Shown here: positions 1 through 9,944 of the stretch, piece after piece
Numbering within the stretch: the first letter of the stretch is position 1
How the letters are laid out: every line of letters begins with the position of its first letter
Virus record (IMG/VR): IMGVR_UViG_2740892431_000015
Length of the DNA: 9,944 bases
Strand: one strand, 5' to 3'
Source of the DNA: a virus
Taxonomy: Duplodnaviria > Heunggongvirae > Uroviricota > Caudoviricetes
Notes under the pieces: generated by a model
The model's input: only the letters and a program-made list of their open reading frames with translations
What the model was told of the DNA's origin: nothing
Database searches by the model: none
Translations under genes and position numbers: made by a program

Positions 1-27
1 CTAAATCAGTAAGTTGGCAGCATCACC
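1..27 (-). mobile_element. IS1 terminal inverted repeat (IRL-type end), 27-bp fragment; element body lies outside the window to the left
   Basis: Bases 1-27 CTAAATCAGTAAGTTGGCAGCATCACC are the exact reverse complement of the IS1 left terminus GGTGATGCTGCCAACTTACTGATTTAG as I remember it; perfect 27-bp inverted match with 9918-9944. Confidence 0.85.
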
Positions 28-36
28 GGGTGATTA

Positions 37-2142
37 ATGGCTAAAGCATGGAAAGATGTTATCGCCTCTCCACAGTATCAGGCGTTAGCACCAGAACAAA
101 AAGCGCAGGCTCAGGAGCAATACTTCAATGAAGTCGTGGCCCCGCAAGCCGGAGAAAGTGTAGCGCAGGCTAAGCAGGCTTTTTATGCTGCCTATCCACT
201 ACCATCAACGAATGAAATAGACCGATCCCAATCAGCAACTCAAAATATTCAACATACATCATCTGATAATTCTCTTGCGTCAGGGTATGCAAAGTTAGCT
301 ACTCAGCAAAGAGAGGGGCTTGAGCGTTCAGCAGAACAGGGAGCCAGTCTTGGGGCTGCGATGCGCGATGCTATAACAGGCGAAAGCCGAATGACTCCAG
401 AGATGGAGAGACTGCAAAATGTCGACCTTGCCCCAGAGTTAACCTCACTCAGCATGGGTGCTCTAAAAGCTCGATGGTCTCAACTTTTCGGCTCTGACGC
501 ATCTCAGGAAAAGATTCTTCAGAGCATGGGAGCGAAATTAAGGCAGGATGAGAAGGGTAACACTATCGTTTCCCTGCCATCCGGTGATTATGCTCTGAAC
601 AAGCCGGGTTTATCGCCGCAAGACGTGGCATCGTTTCTGGCTAATGCGCTGGCGTTTACACCAGCGGGCAGGGCTGGAACGGTGCTTGGTGCCATAGGAA
701 AATCAGCAGCTACAGATTTAGCACTACAGGGAGCCACCAGCCTTGCTGGTGGAGAAGATATTGATCCGTTACAAACGGTAATTTCTGCTGGCATTGGTGG
801 TATTGGTAAGGGGCTGGAAAATACAGCGAGTGCGGTTTCGAGGGCTGTTCGTGGTGATATGTCGCCTGAAGCAAAGGCTGCTGTCAACTTTGCATCGGAA
901 AGAAATCTGCCGTTAATGACCAGTGACATGCTGAAAGATAAAACCTTTATGCAGAGTCAGGCTCAGACATTAGGCGAAAGAGTTCCTTTTTTTGGAACCG
1001 GTAAGAATCGGCTGAATCAACAACAAGCACGAGAAAATTTAGTCAGAACATTTAGCGATGGTCTGGGTGGCATTTCTGATAAACAGCTTTATGAATCTGC
1101 GACTAAAGGGCAACAAAAATTCATTGAGGCAGCAGGAAAGCGATATAACCGCATAATTGACGCTATGGGGGATACCCCTGTCGATCTCTCAAACACGGTA
1201 AAAGCTATCGACAATCAGATTGCCGTGTTAAGCCGCCCGGGCAAATCTCAGGATAGAGCCGCGGTAAAAGTCTTGCAGCAATTTAAAGACGATATCACCA
1301 GCGGACCAAATGACCTGCGTCTGGCGAGGGAAAACAGAACCGATCTTCGAAAGCGATTTATGGCGTCATCTGACACTGTTGATAAAGATACGCTCCAGAA
1401 AGCCAGCGATATTATCTACAAGGCATATACGGCGGATATGAAAAAAGCCGTAGCCAAAAATCTTGGAGCAGACGAAGCCATTAATATGGCAAGGGTTGAT
1501 CGGTCATGGTCTAAATTCAATGACATGATGGGAAGAACGCGCGTTCAAAAGGCAATAGCCAGCGGTAAGGCCACGCCTGAGGATGTAACAAAACTCGTTT
1601 TTAGCCAAAGCCCATCAGAACGTTCTCAGCTTTACAGGCTTCTGGATGACAATGGTAGGCAAAACGCACGAGCAGCCATAGTTCAGAATGCTGTAGATAA
1701 GGCGACTGATCCGTCTGGAAATATCAGTGTTGAGAAGTTTATTAATGCGTTACACCGGAACAGGAAGCAATCAGCAACTTTCTTTAAAGGCGTACATGGA
1801 AAGGAACTGGACGGCGTTATTAAATACCTCAACGATACAAGACACGCGGCAAAAGCGAACGTTCAAAACTTAAATGGTCAGCAGCTTTATGGATTGTTAG
1901 TTGGTGGTGGCATCATAAACGCAGCAGTATTAGCGGGGATGCTAAAAACGGCTGCGTTTGTTGTTCCTGCTGCTGGTGCCGTAGGCGGAGCAGCGAAGGC
2001 ATACGAAAGCCCTGTTATACGAAATGCCTTGTTACGTCTGGCAAATACGCCAAAAGGTAGCACAGCATATGACAGAGCGATCAGTACGGTCACACAATCG
2101 CTCACCAGAGTCGCACAGGCATCACAAAAAGAAGCTCAATAA
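37..2142 (+). CDS. Large hypothetical protein (701 aa), Ala/Gln/Lys-rich and probably helical, with internal Gly-rich segment and C-terminal glycine-zipper-like hydrophobic hairpin; candidate membrane-active protein (bacteriocin-like toxin, or phage tape-measure/ejection protein)
   Basis: Long uninterrupted ORF in typical-GC DNA; ATG at 37 preceded by GGGTGA; in-frame TGA at 31-33 means the frame cannot extend upstream. Hydrophobic Gly/Ala-rich stretch LLVGGGIINAAVLAGMLKTAAFVVPAAGAVGGAAKAY near residues 623-662, followed by a ~40-aa polar tail. Antisense ORFs inside it are shadows. Confidence 0.8.
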   Translation: MAKAWKDVIASPQYQALAPEQKAQAQEQYFNEVVAPQAGESVAQAKQAFYAAYPLPSTNEIDRSQSATQNIQHTSSDNSLASGYAKLATQQREGLERSAEQGASLGAAMRDAITGESRMTPEMERLQNVDLAPELTSLSMGALKARWSQLFGSDASQEKILQSMGAKLRQDEKGNTIVSLPSGDYALNKPGLSPQDVASFLANALAFTPAGRAGTVLGAIGKSAATDLALQGATSLAGGEDIDPLQTVISAGIGGIGKGLENTASAVSRAVRGDMSPEAKAAVNFASERNLPLMTSDMLKDKTFMQSQAQTLGERVPFFGTGKNRLNQQQARENLVRTFSDGLGGISDKQLYESATKGQQKFIEAAGKRYNRIIDAMGDTPVDLSNTVKAIDNQIAVLSRPGKSQDRAAVKVLQQFKDDITSGPNDLRLARENRTDLRKRFMASSDTVDKDTLQKASDIIYKAYTADMKKAVAKNLGADEAINMARVDRSWSKFNDMMGRTRVQKAIASGKATPEDVTKLVFSQSPSERSQLYRLLDDNGRQNARAAIVQNAVDKATDPSGNISVEKFINALHRNRKQSATFFKGVHGKELDGVIKYLNDTRHAAKANVQNLNGQQLYGLLVGGGIINAAVLAGMLKTAAFVVPAAGAVGGAAKAYESPVIRNALLRLANTPKGSTAYDRAISTVTQSLTRVAQASQKEAQ

Positions 2143-2161
2143 CTGGTTAGCCATGGATGGC

Positions 2162-2776
2162 TTAGATATCTCTGCTGTCTCCATTAGGAAATAAAAGATA
2201 ATATGGATTTGCCTTTCTTGCTCTCCTTGCTTCACCCGGATACCTGTTAGTCAGTAGCTTGCATAATGAGCAGAGAACAACACTCAAGAAAATTCCGAAT
2301 GAGAAGATCAATATCTCACCAAAAATCAATGGCGATATTAAATTTTCAGGATTTAATGATAAGTCAATGTTAAAAACATATTGAGCAATACCAGTAAGTA
2401 TCAATAATATAATCCCTATGGAATACATTGCTGTTTCCCAAACATCAGACAGTCTATTTTTGAATTGTTCGCTGGAGTAGTAGTTTGTTATAAAGTCAGA
2501 AAAATCACTCTCATATGCATCATCTTTAGGTGATGTTAGAAATCCTCTGTCTCTCCATACCTTCTCCCAATTAGTCGATTCTTTTTTTAAGGAAAAATAA
2601 ATATGTATTCCCAAAAGGATAGCCAAAATTGGTGTTAGCTCTAAAAAATAGAATGTTATGGAATAAATAATACTGCCATGTTCAAACTCATCTGGGACTA
2701 TCATGTATGCACAAAAATAAATTGAAAAGTACACCATGCAGATAGTTAGCAATTCTTTAGTATCTTTTCTGCTCAC
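2162..2776 (-). CDS. Low-GC integral membrane protein, about four predicted TM helices (204 aa); candidate immunity or exclusion protein
   Basis: GTG start at 2776 with AGGGGG Shine-Dalgarno about 6 nt upstream on the minus strand; four hydrophobic stretches (LLTICMVYFSIYFCAYMIV, IIYSITFYFLELTPILAILLGIHIYF, AMYSIGIILLILTGIAQYVF, ISPLIFGEILIFSFGIFLSVVLCSLCKLL); strongly AT-rich compared with the flanking genes; convergent with the 701-aa ORF, stops 19 bp apart. Confidence 0.7.
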   Translation of the reverse strand: MSRKDTKELLTICMVYFSIYFCAYMIVPDEFEHGSIIYSITFYFLELTPILAILLGIHIYFSLKKESTNWEKVWRDRGFLTSPKDDAYESDFSDFITNYYSSEQFKNRLSDVWETAMYSIGIILLILTGIAQYVFNIDLSLNPENLISPLIFGEILIFSFGIFLSVVLCSLCKLLTNRYPGEARRARKANPYYLLFPNGDSRDI

Positions 2777-2885
2777 ACCAACCCCCTTTAGCGTTGTTTA
2801 GAATGGCAATCATCATATATCCAAGACATGGCATTTGGTACATAGCTTGGGTCGGGATTTCAAGTCCGCTCCCAGTTGATGGGGC

Positions 2886-3040
2886 CGTTACAGTACGCGC
2901 ATATCCGCTTTATGTGAAACAGGAAGATTTTTCTGATATCACTGCCACAGCAAAACACCAATTTCGTGACCAGTACGCGCGCGAGGGGTATCAGTTGCAA
3001 AATTTTTTGCAACTGCGTCCGACCAGTACGCACACGATGG
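2886..3040 (+). repeat. Three degenerate same-orientation copies of a CAGTACGCGCGCGA-type (CG)n-palindrome element
   Basis: cagtacgcgcatatcc at 2891-2906, gaccagtacgcgcgcgagggg at 2968-2988, gaccagtacgcacacgatgg at 3021-3040, in a ~520-bp stretch with no convincing gene. Confidence 0.6.
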
Positions 3041-3230
3041 CGGGGGATACCATAAAACTGTTCTCTACATGAGACAGAGTGGTGGTGATGTGTTGATTAT
3101 CGGCGTATATGCGCACAGGACGCGCTATGACGATGTTTTATGCGGGTACACCAATCACATGTATCTGGTGTGATAAATCGCGTTACATGACCTCTCATGT
3201 TGTGCTGGTGGTTATCACGACTTTCTGAAT

Positions 3231-3274
3231 CTGGCCTTTGCCTGATATTTTGCGACAAGTACGCGCGCGTAGCA
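3231..3274 (+). repeat. Copy of a ~45-bp repeat ending in GACAAGTACGCGCGCGTAGCA (contains perfect palindrome TACGCGCGCGTA)
   Basis: ctggcctttgcctgatattttgcgacaagtacgcgcgcgtagca; about 80 percent identical to the copy at 4608-4652; sits just beyond the 3' end of the minus-strand 73-aa gene. Confidence 0.65.
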
Positions 3275-3297
3275 TCGACAGCATACACATTGGATAT

Positions 3298-3519
3298 TCA
3301 TTTTGTGACCAATGCGATAAGTAGCGGGATAAGAATTGATAAAATCAACAGGCCGATGATCCACTTTTGATTTTCACTGGCCTTATCTCTATTTTCATCA
3401 ATCTTATCAATAATTCGACGCTCCAATCCGTGCATATCACCGCGAATGGCAATCATCTCATTGCGAACATCAGGGAAGTGGTTGGCTTGATGTTCAATGT
3501 GTGGCGTTCTGCCTTTCAT
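3298..3519 (-). CDS. Small tail-anchored membrane protein (73 aa): ~50-aa charged N-terminal region plus one C-terminal TM helix
   Basis: ATG at 3519 with GAGGA Shine-Dalgarno 6 nt upstream on the minus strand; C-terminal WIIGLLILSILIPLLIALV hydrophobic helix; 79 bp downstream of the RHH gene on the same strand, so probably co-transcribed. Confidence 0.55.
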   Translation of the reverse strand: MKGRTPHIEHQANHFPDVRNEMIAIRGDMHGLERRIIDKIDENRDKASENQKWIIGLLILSILIPLLIALVTK

Positions 3520-3598
3520 ATCTGATCCTCACCTATCGTCACTACCTGCTGGTGTATAAAGGTATTGGCCCAAGCAACTTTCCAATGGGCACTCATGT

Positions 3599-4054
3599 TT
3601 ATACGCTGACCTTACAATCAATCACTGCTTTTAGCTTTTCAGCATTGCTTCCCTGACGCTTCCACGCGCTGTAAATATCTTTATCCCACGCTTTACCAGC
3701 TTTTGTTTGATAGCCTGCTTCATTGATCCGTTCAGCTATCACACGCCCATTATCAAATCCCTGTTGGATGGTATCGGCAATGATCTTTATAACTGCCGTT
3801 TCGTTATATGGTTTTGGTGGGATGTTCGGCTTTCCGGCAATAAGCGACGCAGCGGCTTTTTCCATGCGCTCCACCAGCCCAAGCATTCGTGAATCAATAG
3901 ACTTTTCCGGCTGCCCCAGCTTCATGCGAATCGCATCAACAAGCCAGGAGGTTTTATCTCCTCCAGAAGCGAGAACAGACCGATTAAACTCATCCTGCAA
4001 TTCAGATGGGATGCGGAACGCGACCAGATTAGATTTGCTCATTGCAAAGACCAT
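3599..4054 (-). CDS. Ribbon-helix-helix (CopG/Arc/MetJ-like) DNA-binding protein with ~100-aa C-terminal extension (151 aa)
   Basis: N-terminus LVAFRIPSELQDEFNRSVLASGGDKTSWLVDAIRMKL fits the RHH pattern of beta-strand, helix, G-x-T/S turn, helix (my pattern recognition, not a search). First gene of a two-gene minus-strand unit; palindromic operator and iterons immediately upstream. Start may be the second ATG at 4042. Confidence 0.65.
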   Translation of the reverse strand: MVFAMSKSNLVAFRIPSELQDEFNRSVLASGGDKTSWLVDAIRMKLGQPEKSIDSRMLGLVERMEKAAASLIAGKPNIPPKPYNETAVIKIIADTIQQGFDNGRVIAERINEAGYQTKAGKAWDKDIYSAWKRQGSNAEKLKAVIDCKVSV

Positions 4055-4086
4055 ATCAGTGAGTAATATCCATACAGTATACCACT

Positions 4087-4103
4087 GTATAACACTGTTA
4101 TAC
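4087..4103. promoter_or_regulatory. Perfect 17-bp palindrome GTATAACACTGTTATAC, candidate operator in the promoter region of the minus-strand RHH operon
   Basis: Read directly: arms gtataaca / tgttatac around central C at 4095; lies 33-49 bp upstream of the minus-strand start codon at 4054. Confidence 0.4.
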
Positions 4104-4149
4104 GCTCAAATATCAGCCAGAAAATAACGGACCAATCACAAATCTATCG

Positions 4150-4268
4150 CTGTGTTGTTGGTTCAGAGCTGGGCTGTGTTGGTTCAAAATGAGTTGATGT
4201 TGGTTCAATATTTCAGAAAAAACACAATAAAAACAACAATCTTTACAAATTGAACCAACTGAACCAAC
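4150..4268. promoter_or_regulatory. Iteron-like array: three direct TGTTGGTTCA repeats at exact 21-bp spacing plus two tandem inverted TGAACCAAC copies, between divergent genes
   Basis: TGTTGGTTCA at 4156-4165, 4177-4186, 4198-4207; TGAACCAAC at 4251-4259 and 4260-4268; TATAAT at 4281-4286 just before the ATG at 4300. Confidence 0.55.
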
Positions 4269-4299
4269 TATGCTTATCTATATAATCTGAGAGGCAGAA

Positions 4300-4581
4300 A
4301 TGATAAGGGACAGGAAAGCTGAAGAGCTGGAGTCAAAAGGGCTATACCGGAGAGCTGCCGCACGATGGATGGAAGTCATGCTGTTATGCACCGAGGACGA
4401 TGATCGGGAATGGATAAAGCGCCGCCGTGAAACGTGTCTGGAGAACGTGAAGCGCCCGCCCGTGAAGGTTGAGGAATTTGGCGACCTGCATAAAGCTGTT
4501 ACCGAAACGCAACACCGCATGGGGATAGCGCAACCGAACGGTAACGCCTTCCGGTTAAATGGCGGCAAGAGGCAAAGGTAG
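4300..4581 (+). CDS. PerC-family-like transcriptional activator (93 aa)
   Basis: GAGAGG Shine-Dalgarno at 4289-4294; N-terminus MIRDRKAEELESKGLYRRAAARW resembles the PerC/Pch small-activator signature as I remember it; size fits (~90 aa). Family call is from memory, not a search. Confidence 0.65.
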   Translation: MIRDRKAEELESKGLYRRAAARWMEVMLLCTEDDDREWIKRRRETCLENVKRPPVKVEEFGDLHKAVTETQHRMGIAQPNGNAFRLNGGKRQR

Positions 4582-4585
4582 ACCA

Positions 4586-4607
4586 CCAGAGGGAAATCAT
4601 CCTCTGG
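4586..4607 (+). terminator. Possible weak intrinsic terminator hairpin after the PerC-like gene
   Basis: ccagagg (4586-4592) pairs with cctctgg (4601-4607), 8-nt loop; downstream T-content is only moderate. Confidence 0.25.
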
Positions 4608-4652
4608 CTGGCGGTTTCTGGTATTTCGGGACAAGTACGCGCGCGCGTAGCA
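4608..4652 (+). repeat. Second copy of the ~45-bp repeat ending in GACAAGTACGCGCGCGCGTAGCA (contains palindrome TACGCGCGCGCGTA)
   Basis: ctggcggtttctggtatttcgggacaagtacgcgcgcgcgtagca; same orientation as the 3231-3274 copy; lies just 3' of the PerC-like gene. Confidence 0.65.
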
Positions 4653-4878
4653 CCCAATCGGTGAGGAAATAGCGGCGACCTGAATGGTCAAAATCACAAC
4701 GCAGCTATCCCCGTAAGCAGCGCTTAACGGAATAGCAGTAACCTGAATCCAGTGGGGAGGGGGTAGTCAAATCTCTACAGCCCTGACTATCCGGGACTGC
4801 CCGCCCCATCGTTTTTTTATACCCGCGAAAAATGAAATTTAATCCGGGCGTGTTTCATTCTTCCAGAGGGTATGACGT

Positions 4879-5064
4879 ATGACACCACGCGAAATAGCCT
4901 TATTGACCATCGCCAAACTTGAGCACGGAGGCCACCAGCTTACACAGGCAGATCAACGGGAGATAGAACGATCAGTTAATGCCGATATAGCCCGGCGCGA
5001 CAGGTTCCGCGAAATGATGCGAGCACCTGCCTACCAGTGGAAGAAGCCAGCGCCGCGCAGGTAG
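4879..5064 (+). CDS. Small hypothetical protein (61 aa)
   Basis: ATG at 4879 with AGAGGG Shine-Dalgarno 8 nt upstream; same strand and immediately upstream of the pRiA4b-ORF3-like gene; no recognisable family. Confidence 0.4.
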   Translation: MTPREIALLTIAKLEHGGHQLTQADQREIERSVNADIARRDRFREMMRAPAYQWKKPAPRR

Positions 5065-5184
5065 ATATGGGATTATTCCACATGTAACTTATGCGTATTA
5101 AGCAAATTTCCTTTATTCACCTTTACAGAATTGTGAGTACGTCAGTATCGTTATCCTTCCGATTCGCATTTATTCAGGATTTGC

Positions 5185-5727
5185 ATGTACCAGCTAAAGA
5201 TAACCATCCGAGACAGCAAACCACCTATATGGCGGCGTGTGCTGGTTCCAGAGCAAATCCCCTTTAGTAAACTTCATGCCGTGATCCAGTTAGCTTTTGG
5301 CTGGAATGACGAACACCTGTATATGTTCGAGAAAGGGCGTAAAGGTGATCCAGGTAGCGAGTATCGCGTATGGGGTGAGGATGAAAGCATGGGTAACGCG
5401 GCAATCACGCCACTATGGGCGGCGCTCCAGAATGAGGGTGACAAGCTGGTTTACACGTATGACTTTGGCGACTGGTGGGATTGCGTCATTGTGCTGGAGA
5501 AGCAAACACACGATACGAGTAATCAGCCCATTAGCTGCCTGCGTGGGAAAGGCACCACCCCGGCGGAAAACTCAGGCGGCTTGCATGGTTACAATGAATT
5601 GCTATTACAGGCCAGAGAGTCTGATAATCCTGAGCAGGCCGAGATCCACAATTTCCTGATGCTGGATATTGAACGCCGGGTTTACGACCTGAGCCGCATC
5701 AACGACAGATTGCAGGCTATTAACTGA
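5185..5727 (+). CDS. pRiA4b ORF-3-like family protein (180 aa), the family of the IS1096 'TnpR'-like protein; function unknown
   Basis: N-terminus YQLKITIRDSKPPIWRRVLVPEQIPFSKLHAVIQLAFGWNDEHLYMF matches the conserved IWRR...LH.VIQ..(F/M)GW..HLY.F signature I recall for this family. Confidence 0.8.
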   Translation: MYQLKITIRDSKPPIWRRVLVPEQIPFSKLHAVIQLAFGWNDEHLYMFEKGRKGDPGSEYRVWGEDESMGNAAITPLWAALQNEGDKLVYTYDFGDWWDCVIVLEKQTHDTSNQPISCLRGKGTTPAENSGGLHGYNELLLQARESDNPEQAEIHNFLMLDIERRVYDLSRINDRLQAIN

Positions 5728-6079
5728 CCCGCATGTATTCACCTGATATTGCGTTGTCAGCGCCGCCAGTATCGCGCATAACAGCGCACTGACCGGGTAA
5801 ACCGTAGCGCACGACCGTTGCGTTAGTATCACCGCCGCGCCGTATCTGGCGCGATTCATACACTGTCACCCGCTCAAGCAGTCCACCAGCAACCATGCTT
5901 TCCAGTGTGCGCCGGGTTGATTCGAGCTGGTGACGCTTATCGAACGACACCATGCCATGAAGCAGGTAGGCCACACCCGACACATCGAACGGCGGCGCAC
6001 CAATCTCACCAGTCACCCATTCGAGGTTATCCGGTTCAAAGTAGCTAAGTATCTCTTTTTTGCGGCTGGTCATTCTCAT
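5720..6079 (-). CDS. Hypothetical protein (119 aa), possibly a winged-helix DNA-binding protein
   Basis: ATG at 6079 with AAGGAA ~11 nt upstream on the minus strand; imperfect 32-bp palindrome upstream; 3' end overlaps the convergent 5185-5727 gene by 8 bp. GC-rich region with long ORFs in several frames, so coding status is uncertain. Confidence 0.5.
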   Translation of the reverse strand: MRMTSRKKEILSYFEPDNLEWVTGEIGAPPFDVSGVAYLLHGMVSFDKRHQLESTRRTLESMVAGGLLERVTVYESRQIRRGGDTNATVVRYGLPGQCAVMRDTGGADNAISGEYMRVS

Positions 6080-6092
6080 GGCTGGCTGATTC

Positions 6093-6124
6093 CTTATTGT
6101 GGGATAGCACTATCATACAATAAG
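6093..6124. promoter_or_regulatory. Compound imperfect palindrome (CTTATTGT ... GATAG-CA-CTATC ... ACAATAAG), candidate operator upstream of the 119-aa minus-strand gene
   Basis: Read directly: 8-bp outer arms at 6093-6100 and 6117-6124 with a nested GATAG/CTATC inner palindrome; 26 of 32 positions symmetric. Confidence 0.4.
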
Positions 6125-6901
6125 TGGGTTAAAGGGAGAGCGTTACCGCCTGATATGCTGTATGAATAACAACCAAATTTCAGGGGCGGAAAAAGATATG
6201 GGGGTACTTTTGGGGGTATCTATAAAAAATGAACAATAAAAAAGGCAACAAAAACAAAGCTTATCGCCTATGTGTATTGTTCCTATTATCGCACAATCAA
6301 GAAAATCAATAACTTAGCTTAACTTCTCTAAGAAATTGTATCTTCTGTTATCACTTACAAACGCCTATACGTTGTTATGGGCTTTGGTAGTGTAACACGT
6401 ATGGGCGAGTAGTTCCCAGGCTCAACCTCGTAACAAGTTCCTTTGAAGCTGGAAGACGTGCCACCGTCTCTAAACCTTCTACCAAAACTCTTAGCAAGAT
6501 GTTCCACACCTGGCGCGGTGTCCAATGATGCTACACGTCGTGAGACGTTGCAGAGGATAAACAGGCTAAATGATGGGAAGAGTTTTAAGTGCAATAGTGG
6601 ATCAAAGCCCACCTCTTCAAAACCTAACTTGATCGGGAAAGAATCAAGCTCTAGCACGGTTTCGTCCACCGGAGTACAACGGGTGCCTGATAAGAGAAGA
6701 ACTGCTAAGACTTCATAGCTTTTGTGAAAAAGCCCTTTTAGTGGATACGCCTACGGCGCTTATTTTTTGGGGTAGCCCATCAAAGGCGCTTTATGGCTCC
6801 TATTGTCTTGAAAATGTATCTTTACTTGTATTGTGTTTTATGCGTAGTCTCCCTGTGTAGTATGTAACTTGTTAATTTTCATATGAATACAGAGGCACAC
6901 G

Positions 6902-7060
6902 ATGAAAAACATTGCAGCTATCAAACGTAATAACCGCAAGATTCACGCTCGTAAGTTCCTGTCTACGCCAGAAGGAAAAGCCTGGCTAGAGCGTAAACAG
7001 AGAGAGAACGAAGAAAGAAAACTCCTTAATGAGTTGAAATGGCTTAGAGAGGATTTCTGA
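6902..7060 (+). CDS. Small basic protein (52 aa), below the ORF-track threshold: MKNIAAIKRNNRKIHARKFLSTPEGKAWLERKQRENEERKLLNELKWLREDF
   Basis: ATG at 6902 with AGAGG Shine-Dalgarno at 6891-6895 (6-nt spacer); TGA at 7058-7060; sits alone in AT-rich DNA that is otherwise noncoding. Confidence 0.45.
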   Translation: MKNIAAIKRNNRKIHARKFLSTPEGKAWLERKQRENEERKLLNELKWLREDF

Positions 7061-7224
7061 AAATCTCCAGAACGCAACAGGACGCATTCTAACGCTATTT
7101 TCATTGCTTGGTATAGGGATGTATAGGTGATGTGTGTTTAATGCGTCTGTGCGCTTGTTTTGTGCCTTATTTTGCATTTTCATAATGCAGAAGAGAACAC
7201 GGAAAACCTTAAAATTAATTATTG

Positions 7225-7262
7225 GGGTATTTAAGGGTATTTTCAGGTGATTTAAGGGTATT
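7225..7262 (+). repeat. GGGTATT(T/A) direct repeats, including two 13-bp copies ATTTAAGGGTATT spaced 20 bp apart
   Basis: gggtattt at 7225-7232 and 7235-7242, gggtatta at 7256-7263; related GGGGGTA pair at 6199-6220. Confidence 0.5.
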
Positions 7263-7330
7263 AAACTTGATTTAATTGATTAAAATATAAACAGATAGTT
7301 GTGTATCTTATTGATTTATAAGGTTATTTT

Positions 7331-7390
7331 TAAATAAAGGTAAATAAAAAATAAATAGCCATAAATAGCTATAAATACATCTAAATACCT
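7331..7390 (+). repeat. Six tandem 10-bp units of (A/T)TAAATA-type, 10-bp helical phasing (probable intrinsically curved DNA)
   Basis: taaataaagg, taaataaaaa, ataaatagcc, ataaatagct, ataaatacat, ctaaatacct occupying consecutive 10-bp blocks 7331-7390. Confidence 0.55.
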
Positions 7391-7872
7391 ATATCCCTTC
7401 CCTTATGGCTAGATTGCGAGAGGTGCTTAACGCGATTTTCAGCGCCCCCCGATCTGGAAAATCCAGAATCCCCAAATATCAGCAAGGAATTTTCTTGCGT
7501 AATCAACATCGTTTTTACCTATTAAATCATTACACAGAAAGCCTTTCTGTAATGTCTCTCACTAAACTTTCACTAAACACGAGAATGATCGGTTTTATGT
7601 CGGATCAGATGCTAGAAACAGCACCACGTCTCACAAGGACTGTAAGCGATGAAACCAGTGTTTATGCGGGTGCAGGTCAAAATATAGGCCAAAATCAATT
7701 TAACATAATAAACGTAATATGCACTAAGGAACACATAGAACGCCTTGAGTTGATGTATCAGGGGAAAAAAGTGATGGATTTTTTACGTAGGAGCACGAGA
7801 GGGCTTCTGTTGACTTTTGTATGCTATGAAACATAATTAAAGGTTTTTTTGTTTTTATTGTGTGATGTAGTG

Positions 7873-7900
7873 GATTACACAGGGGAATAGATTAAATGGT
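7873..7900 (+). repeat. Iteron copy GATTACACAGGGGAATAGATTAAATGG (ATTACACAGG family)
   Basis: Shares the ATTACACAGGG-AATA...GATTA-TGG pattern with the tandem copies at 8224-8287. Confidence 0.45.
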
Positions 7901-8223
7901 GTTCTGTTTATACAGGTTTATTTGTTAGATCAACAATTTGGCATTTCTAAACAGATGTTTGAACGTTGCCAAATGTCTTGACAACACAAGAAAAGGGCTT
8001 GCTATGCCACGCATTACACGAAATAAGGCTGTAAAAACAAAATAAATTTTAAAATTTGCACAAACGAGAAAACTCGTTAAGAAACAAGCAGAACAATTTT
8101 TAGCCAACAATTTCTGATGGTGCTCTGTAGGCCGCACTACACAAGGATTTGCGAAAGTGATGTAAAAGTGAAGAAAGTAAGAATTGCACTTTTAAGCTAC
8201 TTTTCATTGAATTTTTAGTATGG

Positions 8224-8287
8224 AATTACACAGGAATAAGTTAGGGATATTCTATGATTTACACAGGGAATATAGGGGATTATGGCA
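8224..8287 (+). repeat. Tandem pair of ~32-bp imperfect direct repeats (ATTACACAGG family iterons)
   Basis: aattacacaggaataagttagggatattctatg (8224-8256) and atttacacagggaatataggggattatggcac (8256-8287); further single cores at 8013-8020, 8136-8146, 8303-8311 and 9405-9415. Confidence 0.55.
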
Positions 8288-8459
8288 CACACATAGAAAG
8301 GCATTACACAGAGTGAGTGCTATGTGATGATTGGTAGTAACGGTAGGTCATAGTGAGCTAGGGGGTAGGTCACTGTGAACTACAATAAGACTATTAATAA
8401 AACTATATTAGATTATTAATTAGATCATAATAATAATATTCTTTATATCTATATATATG

Positions 8460-8880
8460 ATCTTTTGCCTTCCGGCGTTAGCTTCACTCTCTGGCAAGCA
8501 GCCTTACTCCGCTACCTTTCGGGCTTCGTGGCTGGCCCGTTCCGCTCACACCGAAAGCAAAGCGTTACTTTCTTCGTGTAACTTCGTTGGCGGTAACGCC
8601 CACGAAGAAATCTATTGCGCTGTGCGCAGTAAGAGTAATCACCTAACCAATCATACTGATTGCTTATGTGTTAACTCTCTCTAACTCTTAATTACCCTCC
8701 TACATTTAATAACTCTGTTATTCTCTGTAGTTGTGTAATTACTCGAAGAGAGAGCGGCTAAAGCTCAATTACACTCTGCTTTCCTCGTGTAATTTCACTA
8801 AGCCTCAATACAATTTCACTTCCTACATTCTGTAGTCGTGTAATTGTTTTCGGTGGAAAAGCCAGAGGCGACACCGAAAG
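8460..8880 (+). other. GC-enriched structured island inside AT-rich DNA; candidate structured ncRNA or single-strand initiation/origin hairpins
   Basis: Hairpin 8516-8557 (ctttcgg / ccgaaag); hairpin 8570-8609 (9-bp stem ttcttcgtg / cacgaagaa enclosing GGCG-GTAA-CGCC, a GNRA tetraloop); hairpin 8848-8879 (tttcggtg / caccgaaa); 10-mer ACACCGAAAG repeated at 8548-8557 and 8871-8880. The 75-aa ORF here has no ribosome-binding site. Confidence 0.3.
8721..8845 (+). repeat. Two direct repeats TTCT(CT)GTAGT(T/C)GTGTAATT carrying the iteron core in reverse orientation
   Basis: 8721-8740 and 8828-8845; further reverse-orientation cores CGTGTAA(C/T) at 8575-8582 and 8785-8793. Confidence 0.45.
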
Positions 8881-8888
8881 AGAATTCT

Positions 8889-8950
8889 GATCTTATTAAT
8901 CTTATCTATCTTAGTTAATCTTCTTACTTATCTTACTTACTTTATCTACT
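8889..8950 (+). repeat. Degenerate 9-bp tandem repeat (ATCTTAnnn) in a G-depleted pyrimidine-rich tract
   Basis: TCTTA at 8890, 8899, 8908, 8921, 8930 (mostly exact 9-bp spacing); only one G between 8889 and 8965 on the top strand. Confidence 0.5.
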
Positions 8951-9481
8951 TTATTATTAATAATAGCTTTATAAGCTCTCTGTGTAGCTCTCTGACGCAA
9001 GAAACAGCATTCAGGAAGGGAATCACCTTAGAAAAGGTGTTCTTTGCGTCATAATGTGTTTTATGAAGGATTCAGAGGTGTTTCATAACAGGAATGTATA
9101 GAGAATACTTTAGGTAATTAAAAATAAGGGGTCTAAATGCTTCTCTAACAGCATTAAGCAGGGTAGGGAATGGAAACGCATTGCCTACATATAATAAACT
9201 CACTACAGGGCTTTACAGGGCGTTTTATAAAGTGACTCTCTGTTTTATATCTACAATCACCTTTTCATATACCTAACAAATACAAAATAAGCCCCTTAAA
9301 TAAGCCTCTGGCGAGCTAAACAGACATTACATAAGAGAATGTATTGCTTTTATCAAAACTTCGTTAGAACGCGTTTTAGAGCGTTTTAGCGGATAATGAA
9401 GAATAGCACTACACAGAAGAGCACGAATTGCTAAGACAAATTATAACATGCTGAAAAAGATCGATTTTTTCGAAAAGGGTA

Positions 9482-9510
9482 TTGACAAATGTTTCTTTAT
9501 ATGTAATAAT
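9482..9510 (+). promoter_or_regulatory. Sigma70-type promoter candidate with extended -10 (TTGACA, 17-bp spacer, TGtAATAAT)
   Basis: Consensus -35 TTGACA at 9482-9487; TG at 9503-9504 and AATAAT at 9505-9510; would give a ~105-nt leader to the ATG at 9624. Confidence 0.45.
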
Positions 9511-9623
9511 AGGTATTAGAGGGACAGAAAAACATTCTTCTCTAAATAATCAAAATCAATGCACTTTGAAGCCGTCAGGCTTGCAAGGTGTTTTATTTCT
9601 TTTAACTGAATAAGGAGTTTTTT

Positions 9624-9812
9624 ATGAAATGGTTTACACCGGAGCACGTCGTAAAGGCATTTAAAAAAGGTGAGCTTACACGCCACCAAATAGTAATGAA
9701 TCGTAATATGGCAAGGAGTCGAGGTTATCCAGAGCGAGCAGCTTGCTTCAATGAAGCACTCAAGATTATTGATGAACTAAGAAAAAATGAAAAAGAATCT
9801 GAAACAGAGTAA
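9624..9812 (+). CDS. Small hypothetical protein (62 aa)
   Basis: Strong AAGGAG Shine-Dalgarno at 9612-9617 with 6-nt spacer; candidate promoter upstream; followed 19 bp later by a second gene with its own ribosome-binding site. Confidence 0.6.
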   Translation: MKWFTPEHVVKAFKKGELTRHQIVMNRNMARSRGYPERAACFNEALKIIDELRKNEKESETE

Positions 9813-9831
9813 AGAAGAGAAGGAGAAAACT

Positions 9832-9939
9832 ATGAGCGAAGCTACAGAAAAGAAAAGACAACCACGCACTTGCTTTCATATTCCTGATGAAGTATTTCAG
9901 GTGTTGTTTAAAGAAGCGGTGATGCTGCCAACTTACTGA
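9832..9939 (+). pseudogene. Gene truncated by IS1 insertion: native N-terminal ~28 codons (MSEATEKKRQPRTCFHIPDEVFQVLFKEA) run into the IS1 end and stop at TGA 9937-9939
   Basis: ATG at 9832 with AGGAG at 9821-9825; the reading frame continues into the IS1 terminal repeat (from 9918), so the native C-terminus is missing. Confidence 0.5.
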
Positions 9940-9944
9940 TTTAG
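9918..9944 (+). mobile_element. IS1 terminal inverted repeat (IRL-type end), 27-bp fragment; element body lies outside the window to the right
   Basis: GGTGATGCTGCCAACTTACTGATTTAG matches the IS1 left terminus as I remember it and is the exact inverse of bases 1-27. Confidence 0.85.

Follow-up and report, generated by a model that had tools for sequence, protein, structure and literature searches.

The right end of the 9,944-nt window analysed here (IMG/VR virus record IMGVR_UViG_2740892431_000015, Caudoviricetes) carries a predicted sigma-70 promoter, a structured leader, a gene for a 62-residue protein (gene 1) and the beginning of a second small gene (gene 2) that is cut by the insertion sequence IS1 (Table 1). 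A sequence-only reading had taken this region for a promoter-driven, two-gene toxin-antitoxin, anti-defence or regulatory module. Our analysis points elsewhere. With a probability of roughly 0.6, we take the region to be where the main rightward operon of a ~12.4-kb, phage-satellite-like element at the tRNA gene thrW begins: it would hold the control sequences of this operon and its first two genes, with entry into the operon gated by a terminator in its leader.

Table 1. Positions of the operon head, the IS1 ends and the element border in the 9,944-nt window.
Feature	Position	Strand	Basis or remark
A/T-tract region, UP element-like	9453-9479	+	5′ of the -35; GATC at 9459-9462; read from the sequence
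Predicted sigma-70 promoter	9482-9510	+	11/12 plus TGn; in 34/35 upstream variants; also scanned in Enterobacter locus L005
5′ leader hairpin	9520-9543	+	~+3 to +27 from the predicted transcription start; RNA folds
Intrinsic-terminator-like hairpin and U-run	9561-9603	+	RNA folds; position conserved across lineages
Gene 1, 62 aa	9624-9812	+	Open reading frame, Shine-Dalgarno site, pN/pS, family profile
Gene 2, native part (28 2/3 codons from the start of a gene for a 56-aa ribbon-helix-helix protein)	9832-9917	+	Intact allele elsewhere
IS1 left inverted repeat	9918-9944	+	Same orientation as the operon; 27/27 to the IS1A end in AF3
Left inverted repeat of another IS1 copy, which points outward from the window	1-27	-	Reverse complement of the 27-nt IS1 left inverted repeat
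Degenerate copy of the thrW 3′ end, att-like junction	6281-6303	+	Left border of the 12.4-kb element; E2865 homology begins here

Promoter and leader

The promoter combines a consensus -35 hexamer (TTGACA, 9482-9487), a 17-nt spacer and the -10 hexamer AATAAT (9505-9510), the latter preceded by TGt as in extended -10 promoters. A consensus match alone is little proof here, because three sites matching at least 9 of 12 positions were found in the region against 3.6 expected by chance. Since promoter-like hexamers are not enriched in this AT-rich DNA, the case rests on the quality of the match and on its conservation. To assess the latter, the 260 nt 5′ of gene 1 were aligned from distant relatives, and 35 distinct variants were then gathered from 40 related loci. 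In 34 of the 35, TTGACA stands at a constant distance from gene 1 and is followed by a good -10, often with TG, and the same layout recurs throughout: an A/T-rich tract, the promoter, a 5′ hairpin, an A-rich spacer and a second hairpin with a U-run, which ends ~20-45 nt 5′ of the gene 1 start codon. The near-consensus sigma-70 promoter proposed from the sequence alone is thus borne out.

Judging from its composition, the A/T tract 5′ of the -35 resembles an UP element and may act as one. The motif AAAA(A/T)GATC recurs 5′ of the promoter in many upstream variants, and a GATC (Dam) site within the A-tract is kept ~20-60 nt 5′ of the -35 in many lineages; this site may be part of the UP element or may be sensitive to methylation.

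The sequence-only reading overlooked both leader hairpins and had the promoter driving gene 1 directly. That part of it fails, given that a conserved terminator stands between the two. In the window, the terminator hairpin (9561-9591) has 13 bp with one bulge, a GUCA loop and a predicted energy of -17 kcal/mol, and is followed by UUUAUUUCUUUU; a stable, G+C-containing hairpin with a U-run, of the kind that defines an intrinsic terminator or attenuator, therefore lies between promoter and gene. At this same leader position, three unrelated stem sequences are found across the lineages. Type (a), GCACUUUGA(A)GCC...GGC(U)UGCAAGGUGU, occurs in E. coli, Klebsiella and others, and some of its members lack one A together with its pairing U. 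Type (b), AGCCCUGGGCGG...CUGCCUGGGGCU, belongs to an Enterobacter, Citrobacter, Kluyvera, Kosakonia and Buttiauxella group, and type (c), AAGCCUCCUCC...GAGGGGGCUU, to loci L011 and L012. In the Enterobacter locus L005, our scan independently called the promoter, at 11/12, and also the terminator, with 12 pairs (8 of them G-C) and a T-run; the copy in the window was overlooked by the scan because of its stem bulge. The 5′ hairpin, too, is present in most lineages, with stem changes that compensate each other (AGAA/UUCU, AGGAA/UUCCU, GAAGG/CCUUC).

These structures were taken from folds of the individual sequences rather than from a covariance model. RNAalifold, applied to a MAFFT alignment of 18 leaders, returned almost no structure, the three hairpin families being out of register. 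For that reason, the evidence for the leader is the conservation of shape and position and not column-by-column covariation.

The element to which this region belongs contains a second strong promoter of similar design (TTGACA-17-TAATAT with TG; strain E2865, locus L002, 14548-14576). Its 288-nt leader (L002, to 14868) folds with z = -6.1, none of 200 shuffled sequences folding as well, and contains a 13-bp terminator-like hairpin with a U-run just 5′ of the structural (capsid and tail) genes. A TAT..G-GGG motif follows the -10 of both promoters at 2-6 nt. We considered it as a sigma-dependent pause element and found this unsupported, as its spacing varies and, in the window, it makes up the 5′ arm of the first leader hairpin; a lambda Q-type antitermination unit, with antiterminator gene and pause element, is not recognised here. 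Neither leader belongs to an Rfam family (whole window, three distant loci and full E2865 element searched), and in a plasmid collection only two E. coli records match the leader of the window, one of them of 4.9 Mb.

Could the leader be a gene in its own right? On this alternative it would encode a stand-alone small RNA, either trans-acting and Hfq-type or an immunity RNA like that of P4 CI, with gene 1 expressed by leakage or from elsewhere. Many bacterial small RNAs have this layout, in which a strong promoter is followed by a stem-loop at the 5′ end, a single-stranded stretch (here the conserved CUAAAUAAUCAAA) and, last, a Rho-independent terminator. In addition, the type (a) terminator is nearly unchanged across lineages in which gene 1 is only ~40% identical, which suggests selection on its sequence as well as on its structure. 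However, other lineages replace the leader sequence while keeping its shape, a pattern more in keeping with a cis-acting element than with a conserved seed; moreover, the RNA matches no Rfam family and no target is known. The promoter scan also found no promoter between the terminator and gene 1. Therefore, gene 1 and the genes downstream depend on read-through, and the operon would still need it even if a small RNA were made, so that the two roles are not exclusive. We regard a stand-alone RNA gene as unlikely, though deserving of serious consideration.

The two small genes

Gene 1 (ATG at 9624, stop codon at 9810-9812) follows an AAGGAG Shine-Dalgarno site at 9612-9617. After a gap of 19 nt comes gene 2, with its own AAGGAG (9820-9825) and an ATG at 9832. 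In frame, the ratio of nonsynonymous to synonymous polymorphism (pN/pS) is 0.26 for gene 1 (21 alleles), compared with 1.1 and 2.5 in the other frames; for gene 2 of the window type it is 0.11 (5 alleles), with values >1 in the other frames. Both small open reading frames are protein-coding and under purifying selection, and the 62-codon gene with a strong Shine-Dalgarno site and the second gene with its own ribosome-binding site, as first described, both stand.

Gene 2 is broken at 9918, where the IS1 left inverted repeat GGTGATGCTGCCAACTTACTGATTTAG begins. The repeat agrees at 27/27 positions with the end of an annotated IS1A in strain AF3, and its assignment to IS1 follows from this match of the terminal inverted repeat GGTGATGCTGCCAACTTACTGAT... 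to the AF3 copy. Only these first 27 nt of IS1 lie within the window, with the transposase outside. The native remainder of gene 2 comprises 86 nt, that is, 28 codons and 2 nt; codon 29 still reads Ala by chance, and the frame continues past the junction as VMLPTY to a stop inside IS1 at 9937-9939. That an intact, longer gene would exist in relatives had been anticipated, and it was found: in AF3, E2865 and the enterohaemorrhagic E. coli (EHEC) O26:H11 strain 11368, gene 2 encodes 56 residues, MSEATEKKRQPRTCFHIPDEVFQVLFKEARSKRITVTDYILDMLKREAETLSNKSK. The homology of all intact loci to the window ends at 9917, at the IS1 junction. No match spanning the gene 2-IS1 junction was found among the 5,426 complete E. 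coli genomes searched.

The AlphaFold2 (AF2) model of intact gene 2 (mean predicted local distance difference test score, pLDDT, 83.5) has an extended stretch at residues 12-17 and helices at 19-31 and 36-55, and so shows the N-terminal beta-strand and two helices within ~45 residues that define a ribbon-helix-helix (RHH) protein structurally. In a Foldseek search of the PDB, the leading matches are overwhelmingly RHH proteins (VapB12, Arc, CopG, pRN1 ORF56, AmrZ; probability 0.7-0.99), while a PDB profile search gave only the VapB12 antitoxin (E = 1.2). On the strength of the model, gene 2 encodes a ribbon-helix-helix, putatively DNA-binding regulator. The modelled protein consists of the 45-residue DNA-binding fold only, with no C-terminal tail for binding a toxin. 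Most loci carry a small open reading frame with an RHH-like pattern 3′ of gene 1, and these fall into at least seven sequence types, among them MSETTEKKRQPRTCFHIPDEVF..., MSETKKPIPRTYLHVDPEIF..., MKINFTPETYEAL..., MMNIRFSPEVYEAL... and MNINFDSATYNAL....

For gene 1, the AF2 model (pLDDT 88) comprises three helices (6-14, 20-33 and 36-61). No significant match was obtained in Pfam, NCBIfam, PADLOC, PHROGs or the PDB sequence profiles, and fold searches returned only designed helical bundles from the PDB (E > 3) and small uncharacterised phage proteins from BFVD (E > 0.1). A gene 1 profile run against 1.8 billion representatives gave ~29 relatives, several of them long proteins matching in 5-10 repeated stretches; the one long relative inspected by eye (P0040) resembles a tetratricopeptide repeat (TPR)-type protein. 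This suggests that helices 2-3 of gene 1 form a TPR-like hairpin, which is a hint of fold and not of function. The family profile collects 78 database proteins whose named sources are Escherichia, Enterobacter, Klebsiella, Cronobacter and Citrobacter, and the gene 1 loci add Kluyvera, Kosakonia and Buttiauxella. Gene 1 is a marker of this element family. Because it is the first product of the operon and its most conserved feature after the leader, we consider it a candidate early effector.

A self-contained toxin-antitoxin or anti-defence pair, with the RHH protein as antitoxin and the 62-residue protein as its partner, has some features on its side: RHH proteins are common antitoxins, the top fold matches include VapB, AtaR and TacA, the two genes are small and closely spaced, and one metagenomic sequence in which genes 1 and 2 are fused by read-through carries the source label 'HicB family'. 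Nevertheless, gene 1 is a three-helix protein with no toxin fold or family in PADLOC, Pfam, NCBIfam or the PDB, neither gene belongs to a toxin, antitoxin or defence family of PADLOC, Pfam or NCBIfam, and the RHH protein lacks the toxin-binding extension. Nor is the pair autonomous or its partnership fixed. No terminator follows gene 2, and a replication gene begins 53 nt on, on the same strand; in loci L003, L009 and L010, gene 1 is followed by a gene other than RHH; and the RHH alleles swap independently of gene 1. A recognisable adjacent toxin and an autonomous operon, both expected of a type II system, are thus lacking, and we consider such a pair very improbable. What had been read as a two-gene module is instead the head of a long run of genes on one strand.

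The thrW element and its phage relatives

Positions 9400-9944, used as a query, match 585 of the 5,426 complete E. coli genomes (~11%), and over 1-9917 the window and strain AF3 share 99.8% identity. In E2865 (O26), the element lies directly after the tRNA-Thr gene thrW, and a 23-bp direct repeat, ACTCCTATTATCGGCACCATTAA, flanks 12,386 bp. The homology of the window to this element starts at 6281, inside the tRNA-Thr 3′ end; therefore, window 1-6280 is a different island inserted in tandem.

Gene order was read from the gene tables of AF3, E2865 and EHEC O26:H11 11368. After gene 2 come, on the same strand, genes for a 230-residue protein, for proteins of 92, 136, 112, 70 and 120 residues, for a 342-residue capsid protein and for proteins of 67, 609 and 237 residues; a tyrosine integrase (DUF6538 + Phage_integrase) closes the element on the opposite strand. 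The 230-residue protein is a winged-helix replication initiator (HTH_36; PHROG 270, 1e-9), the 342-residue protein a major capsid protein (Phage_cap_E), the 609-residue protein tape-measure-like (PHROG 16051, 1e-54) and the 237-residue protein Dit_like (3e-29). Scanning from gene 1 to the capsid gene revealed no convincing terminator; a strong one stands just after the capsid gene. Relatives with only ~35-45% gene 1 identity, in E. coli, Klebsiella and Enterobacter, keep the gene order. Across the loci, the gene after the RHH slot encodes one of several types of replication protein, either a winged helix-turn-helix (wHTH) initiator of 189-245 residues or a helicase-like protein of 428-485 residues.

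Since it brings replication and integration genes of its own but only some of the genes for a virion, the element has the profile of a phage satellite. Pfam and PHROG scans of every annotated element protein found no satellite hallmark genes (alpha, sid, psu or delta of P4; alpA, terS or ppi; portal or protease), and by these genes the element falls into none of the known P4-like, PICI, cf-PICI and PLE families. It also has no recognisable repressor gene. The literature on thrW satellites, on DUF6538 and on satellites of Justusliebigvirus or Phapecoctavirus, as far as our incomplete coverage reaches, does not describe it, and the family is apparently undescribed.

As a whole, the element has no match among deposited phages, and its capsid protein is only ~25% identical to capsids of Pseudomonas myoviruses. 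Its Dit-like (62%) and tape-measure-like (~36%) proteins (genes at L002, 16789-19363) have their closest phage relatives in Stephanstirmvirinae, namely in virulent E. coli myoviruses of 145-150 kb (Justusliebigvirus, Phapecoctavirus); the two genes are also adjacent in the one phage genome compared, vB_EcoM_ESCO8. A translated phage search with the window-type RHH protein matched only muut and inny, both of ~146-147 kb; the protein match of inny is as strong as that of muut, and the DNA comparison was made with muut only (MN850573; L045, 3989-5218; classified as Justusliebigvirus). Here, muut_153 agrees at 56/56 residues with 'type B', the second of the common RHH alleles in the element family, and 242 bp are 99.6% identical between an element (L022, 3197-3438) and the phage. 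This cassette runs from the RHH ribosome-binding site through the open reading frame and the spacer downstream of it into the first bases of the gene that follows; the promoter lies outside it. We take these findings as good evidence, at the level of sequence, that the element and these phages meet and recombine. They are no more than suggestive of these phages as helpers or targets of the element, and of a functional tie between the RHH gene and the replication module.

The next phage gene, muut_154 (332 residues), contains two initiator-type wHTH stretches, one of which is 40% identical to the 217-residue Rep of the element, including a run of ~20 near-identical residues. Its C-terminus carries a MUG113 (Pfam) or 'endonuclease' (PHROG 681) domain; MUG113 falls, we presume, within the GIY-YIG clan, as does T5orf172. 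This architecture is that of Odn of phage ICP1, in which an N-terminus 42% identical to the RepA_N of the satellite PLE is joined to a T5orf172 nuclease that cuts the origin of the satellite (PMC8263062). By analogy, muut_154 looks like an Odn-type anti-satellite nuclease.

The phage-shared cassette also bears on the proposal that the RHH protein represses the promoter at 9482-9510 in a negative-feedback loop, like CopG at Pcr or Arc at Pant. RHH genes 5′ of rep genes often repress their own promoter, as pMV158 CopG does, and the order promoter, RHH, Rep is present here. On the other hand, the same promoter and leader occur with different RHH alleles and the same allele behind different promoters, and the cassette shared with muut starts at the RHH ribosome-binding site, leaving the promoter out. 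This shuffling of alleles argues both against a fixed partnership of genes 1 and 2 and against repression of this promoter by the RHH protein. The spacer between genes 2 and 3 has a core common to both main RHH alleles, and our search for an RHH operator by co-variation with promoter, leader or Rep type yielded none that could be assigned. Autorepression is, in our judgement, quite improbable; by analogy with CopG, the RHH protein most likely controls replication or downstream expression.

The recent exchange with a virulent phage, at 99.6% identity, weighs likewise against the notion that the locus is an inert remnant of a decayed prophage whose promoter- and hairpin-like features arose by chance. 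Such decay could be read into the almost ORF-free left 3.3 kb of the element, the break by IS1 in the window and the chance frequency of promoter-like hexamers. But both genes are under purifying selection, the same architecture recurs in several genera with different sequences, and the element is found in ~11% of complete E. coli genomes. We give this notion hardly any credence.

Taken together, these results lead us to propose a terminator-gated operon. A strong, largely constitutive promoter of host type, with its consensus -35, extended -10 and A/T-rich upstream region, would fire. The transcript would open with the small 5′ hairpin and meet, ~45 nt on, the intrinsic terminator ~20 nt 5′ of the gene 1 ribosome-binding site, so that most transcripts would probably stop as a leader RNA of ~75-90 nt. 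Only read-through of the terminator, which would probably rise on infection by a helper phage, would allow the expression of gene 1, the RHH gene, the gene for the replication initiator and those after it. The RHH gene appears to travel as a swappable cassette with the replication-initiator module, and most likely controls replication or downstream expression. Because no repressor gene is recognisable and both strong promoters precede terminator-like hairpins, control by transcription termination, and not by repression, is suggested.

Several parts of this proposal were computed directly: the anatomy and its conservation, the coding status of the two genes, the RHH fold of gene 2, the run of genes on one strand, the break caused by IS1 and the exchange with a phage. 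Other points weigh against it. We infer termination and read-through from the leader sequence, and no antiterminator family was recognised among the proteins of the element in Pfam, PHROG and NCBIfam profile scans. Lineage L003 has gene 1 with no leader terminator, and searches of deposited phages for the leader gave only noise matches. Satellite status is likewise deduced from the partial structural gene set, and the helper is putative. As for the two proteins, gene 1 has no informative homologue by sequence or fold search; for gene 2, all Foldseek E-values are >0.1, no Pfam or NCBIfam RHH family matches at E ≤ 1, and the match to PHROG 582 ('Arc-like repressor') is weak (E = 0.013). Finally, the RHH allele that a locus carries does not follow its promoter or leader type and is only loosely tied to its Rep type, and the analogy of gene 2 to CopG is tentative.

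A bolder version of the terminator-gated operon would place the element in an undescribed family whose members are satellites of the large, virulent myoviruses that infect E. coli (phi92-like Justusliebigvirus and its relatives). Its early and structural operons would be silenced by leader terminators behind constitutive promoters instead of by a repressor, and read through only on helper infection. Gene 1 would be the first effector, and RHH-Rep would form a specificity module, taken over by the phages and joined to a nuclease for use as a counter-weapon in the way of ICP1 Odn. In this full form, the idea is speculative and rather unlikely to hold in all its parts.

In the genome represented by the window, the RHH fold cannot form because the IS1 break falls inside helix A. 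The insertion would thus abolish the RHH protein and, if the downstream genes are still present, uncouple them from the promoter, so that only the leader and gene 1 should still be expressible. The suggestion that gene 1 may now be an orphan is correct in that it is cut from the rest of its operon by IS1, and in no other sense. For this genome, the practical message is an element inactivated by IS1.

The two ends of the window, 1-27 and 9918-9944, are the same IS1 left inverted repeat facing inward; therefore, the 9.9-kb segment lies between two IS1 copies of opposite orientation. The left junction is also present in AF3, beside an annotated IS1A transposase, and the right one is absent from AF3. 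Two histories would account for this: a second IS1 insertion, independent of the first, or inversion of the segment by intramolecular IS1 transposition. A simple insertion would carry a 9-bp duplication, TAAAGAAGC, with the gene 2 remainder right after IS1; if the 9.9-kb segment was inverted, that remainder would adjoin the other IS1 copy.

The left arm of the element (6281-9480) has 31-48% G+C, mostly 34-41%, and is a mosaic of blocks common to different relatives, in which RefSeq annotates only a 52-aa reading frame (6903-7061); it has no Rfam match. It contains five plus-strand copies of TTACACAG within 800 bp (7530-8311), and the window has six against 0.29 expected. This cluster occurs only in loci with the 230-residue wHTH initiator, loci L003-L006, with another replication gene, having none or a single stray copy; the repeats are candidate iterons or a candidate origin. 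A 45-nt island with the inverted repeat TTGGCA...TGCCAA (7929-7974) recurs with 85-95% conservation in the left arms of Enterobacter and Buttiauxella elements and uncultured viral contigs, arms that are otherwise unrelated, and may be a packaging, origin or protein-binding site. Relative to window 8315-8342, E2865 carries ~440 extra bp (L002, 10519-10963), a difference that adjoins a 19-nt tandem repeat (GGTAGGTCATAGTGAGCTA / GGTAGGTCACTGTGAACTA) at 8342-8382. In the tandem thrW island (window 37-6280), RefSeq gives the name 'P22-gp16 family DNA ejection protein' to a 701-residue protein; positions 4300-4581 encode a PerC-family regulator and 5185-5727 a pRiA4b ORF-3 family protein, and several further genes have no assigned function.

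Comparison with known systems

On its own, a gene pair clipped by IS1 is a minor finding; it matters for the element to which it belongs. Roughly every ninth complete E. coli genome carries that element, the reference EHEC O26:H11 strain 11368 among them, and the tail genes of the element and its 99.6%-identical regulator cassette point to virulent phi92-like phages as the candidate helper group. Phages of this group are under study for therapy, with which satellites could interfere.

The nearest parallels to the RHH gene are CopG-RepB of pMV158 and ORF56-ORF904 of the Sulfolobus plasmid pRN1, in which an RHH protein of 45-56 residues is likewise encoded directly 5′ of a replication gene on one transcript. 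Both CopG and ORF56 are among the best structural matches of gene 2, although gene 2 lacks sequence-level membership in the CopG family. In our element, the cassette that moves comprises the RHH gene with the start of the Rep gene, and, unlike in either plasmid, the RHH gene comes after gene 1, which is conserved, and a leader terminator. Since the RHH alleles do not track the promoter, autorepression of the CopG kind is unlikely at this promoter. With the type II toxin-antitoxin systems VapBC, AtaRT and TacAT, gene 2 shares the RHH fold and the two genes share small size and close spacing; the differences are the missing toxin and antitoxin tail, the lack of autonomy and a partner gene that varies.

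As regards control, a strong and apparently constitutive promoter with an intrinsic terminator within ~100 nt recalls the lambda PR′-tR′ unit under Q and leader termination at the P4 PLE promoter, and here a second promoter-leader-terminator unit stands before the structural genes. The resemblance is one of layout only, with no pause element or antiterminator identified; protein profile scans and Rfam found no homologue of Q, N or the CI RNA, and the leader is much shorter than lambda 6S RNA.

Compared with the phage satellites (P4-like, PICI, cf-PICI and PLE), ours is likewise small and integrated at a tRNA gene; it brings an integrase and a replication module, and part of a virion gene set. 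It differs from all these families in that no AlpA, Sid, Psu, Delta, TerS, portal or protease was detected, and from known satellites in having its own capsid, tape-measure-like and Dit-like genes, a combination that we did not find described in the literature searched. With PLE of Vibrio cholerae it shares candidate helpers that are virulent myoviruses. Furthermore, muut_154 resembles ICP1 Odn in fusing a Rep-like DNA-binding domain to a GIY-YIG-type nuclease domain, a kind of chimera known so far from the Vibrio phage ICP1 and its satellite PLE, which raises the possibility of a similar arms race between these E. coli phages and the thrW element.

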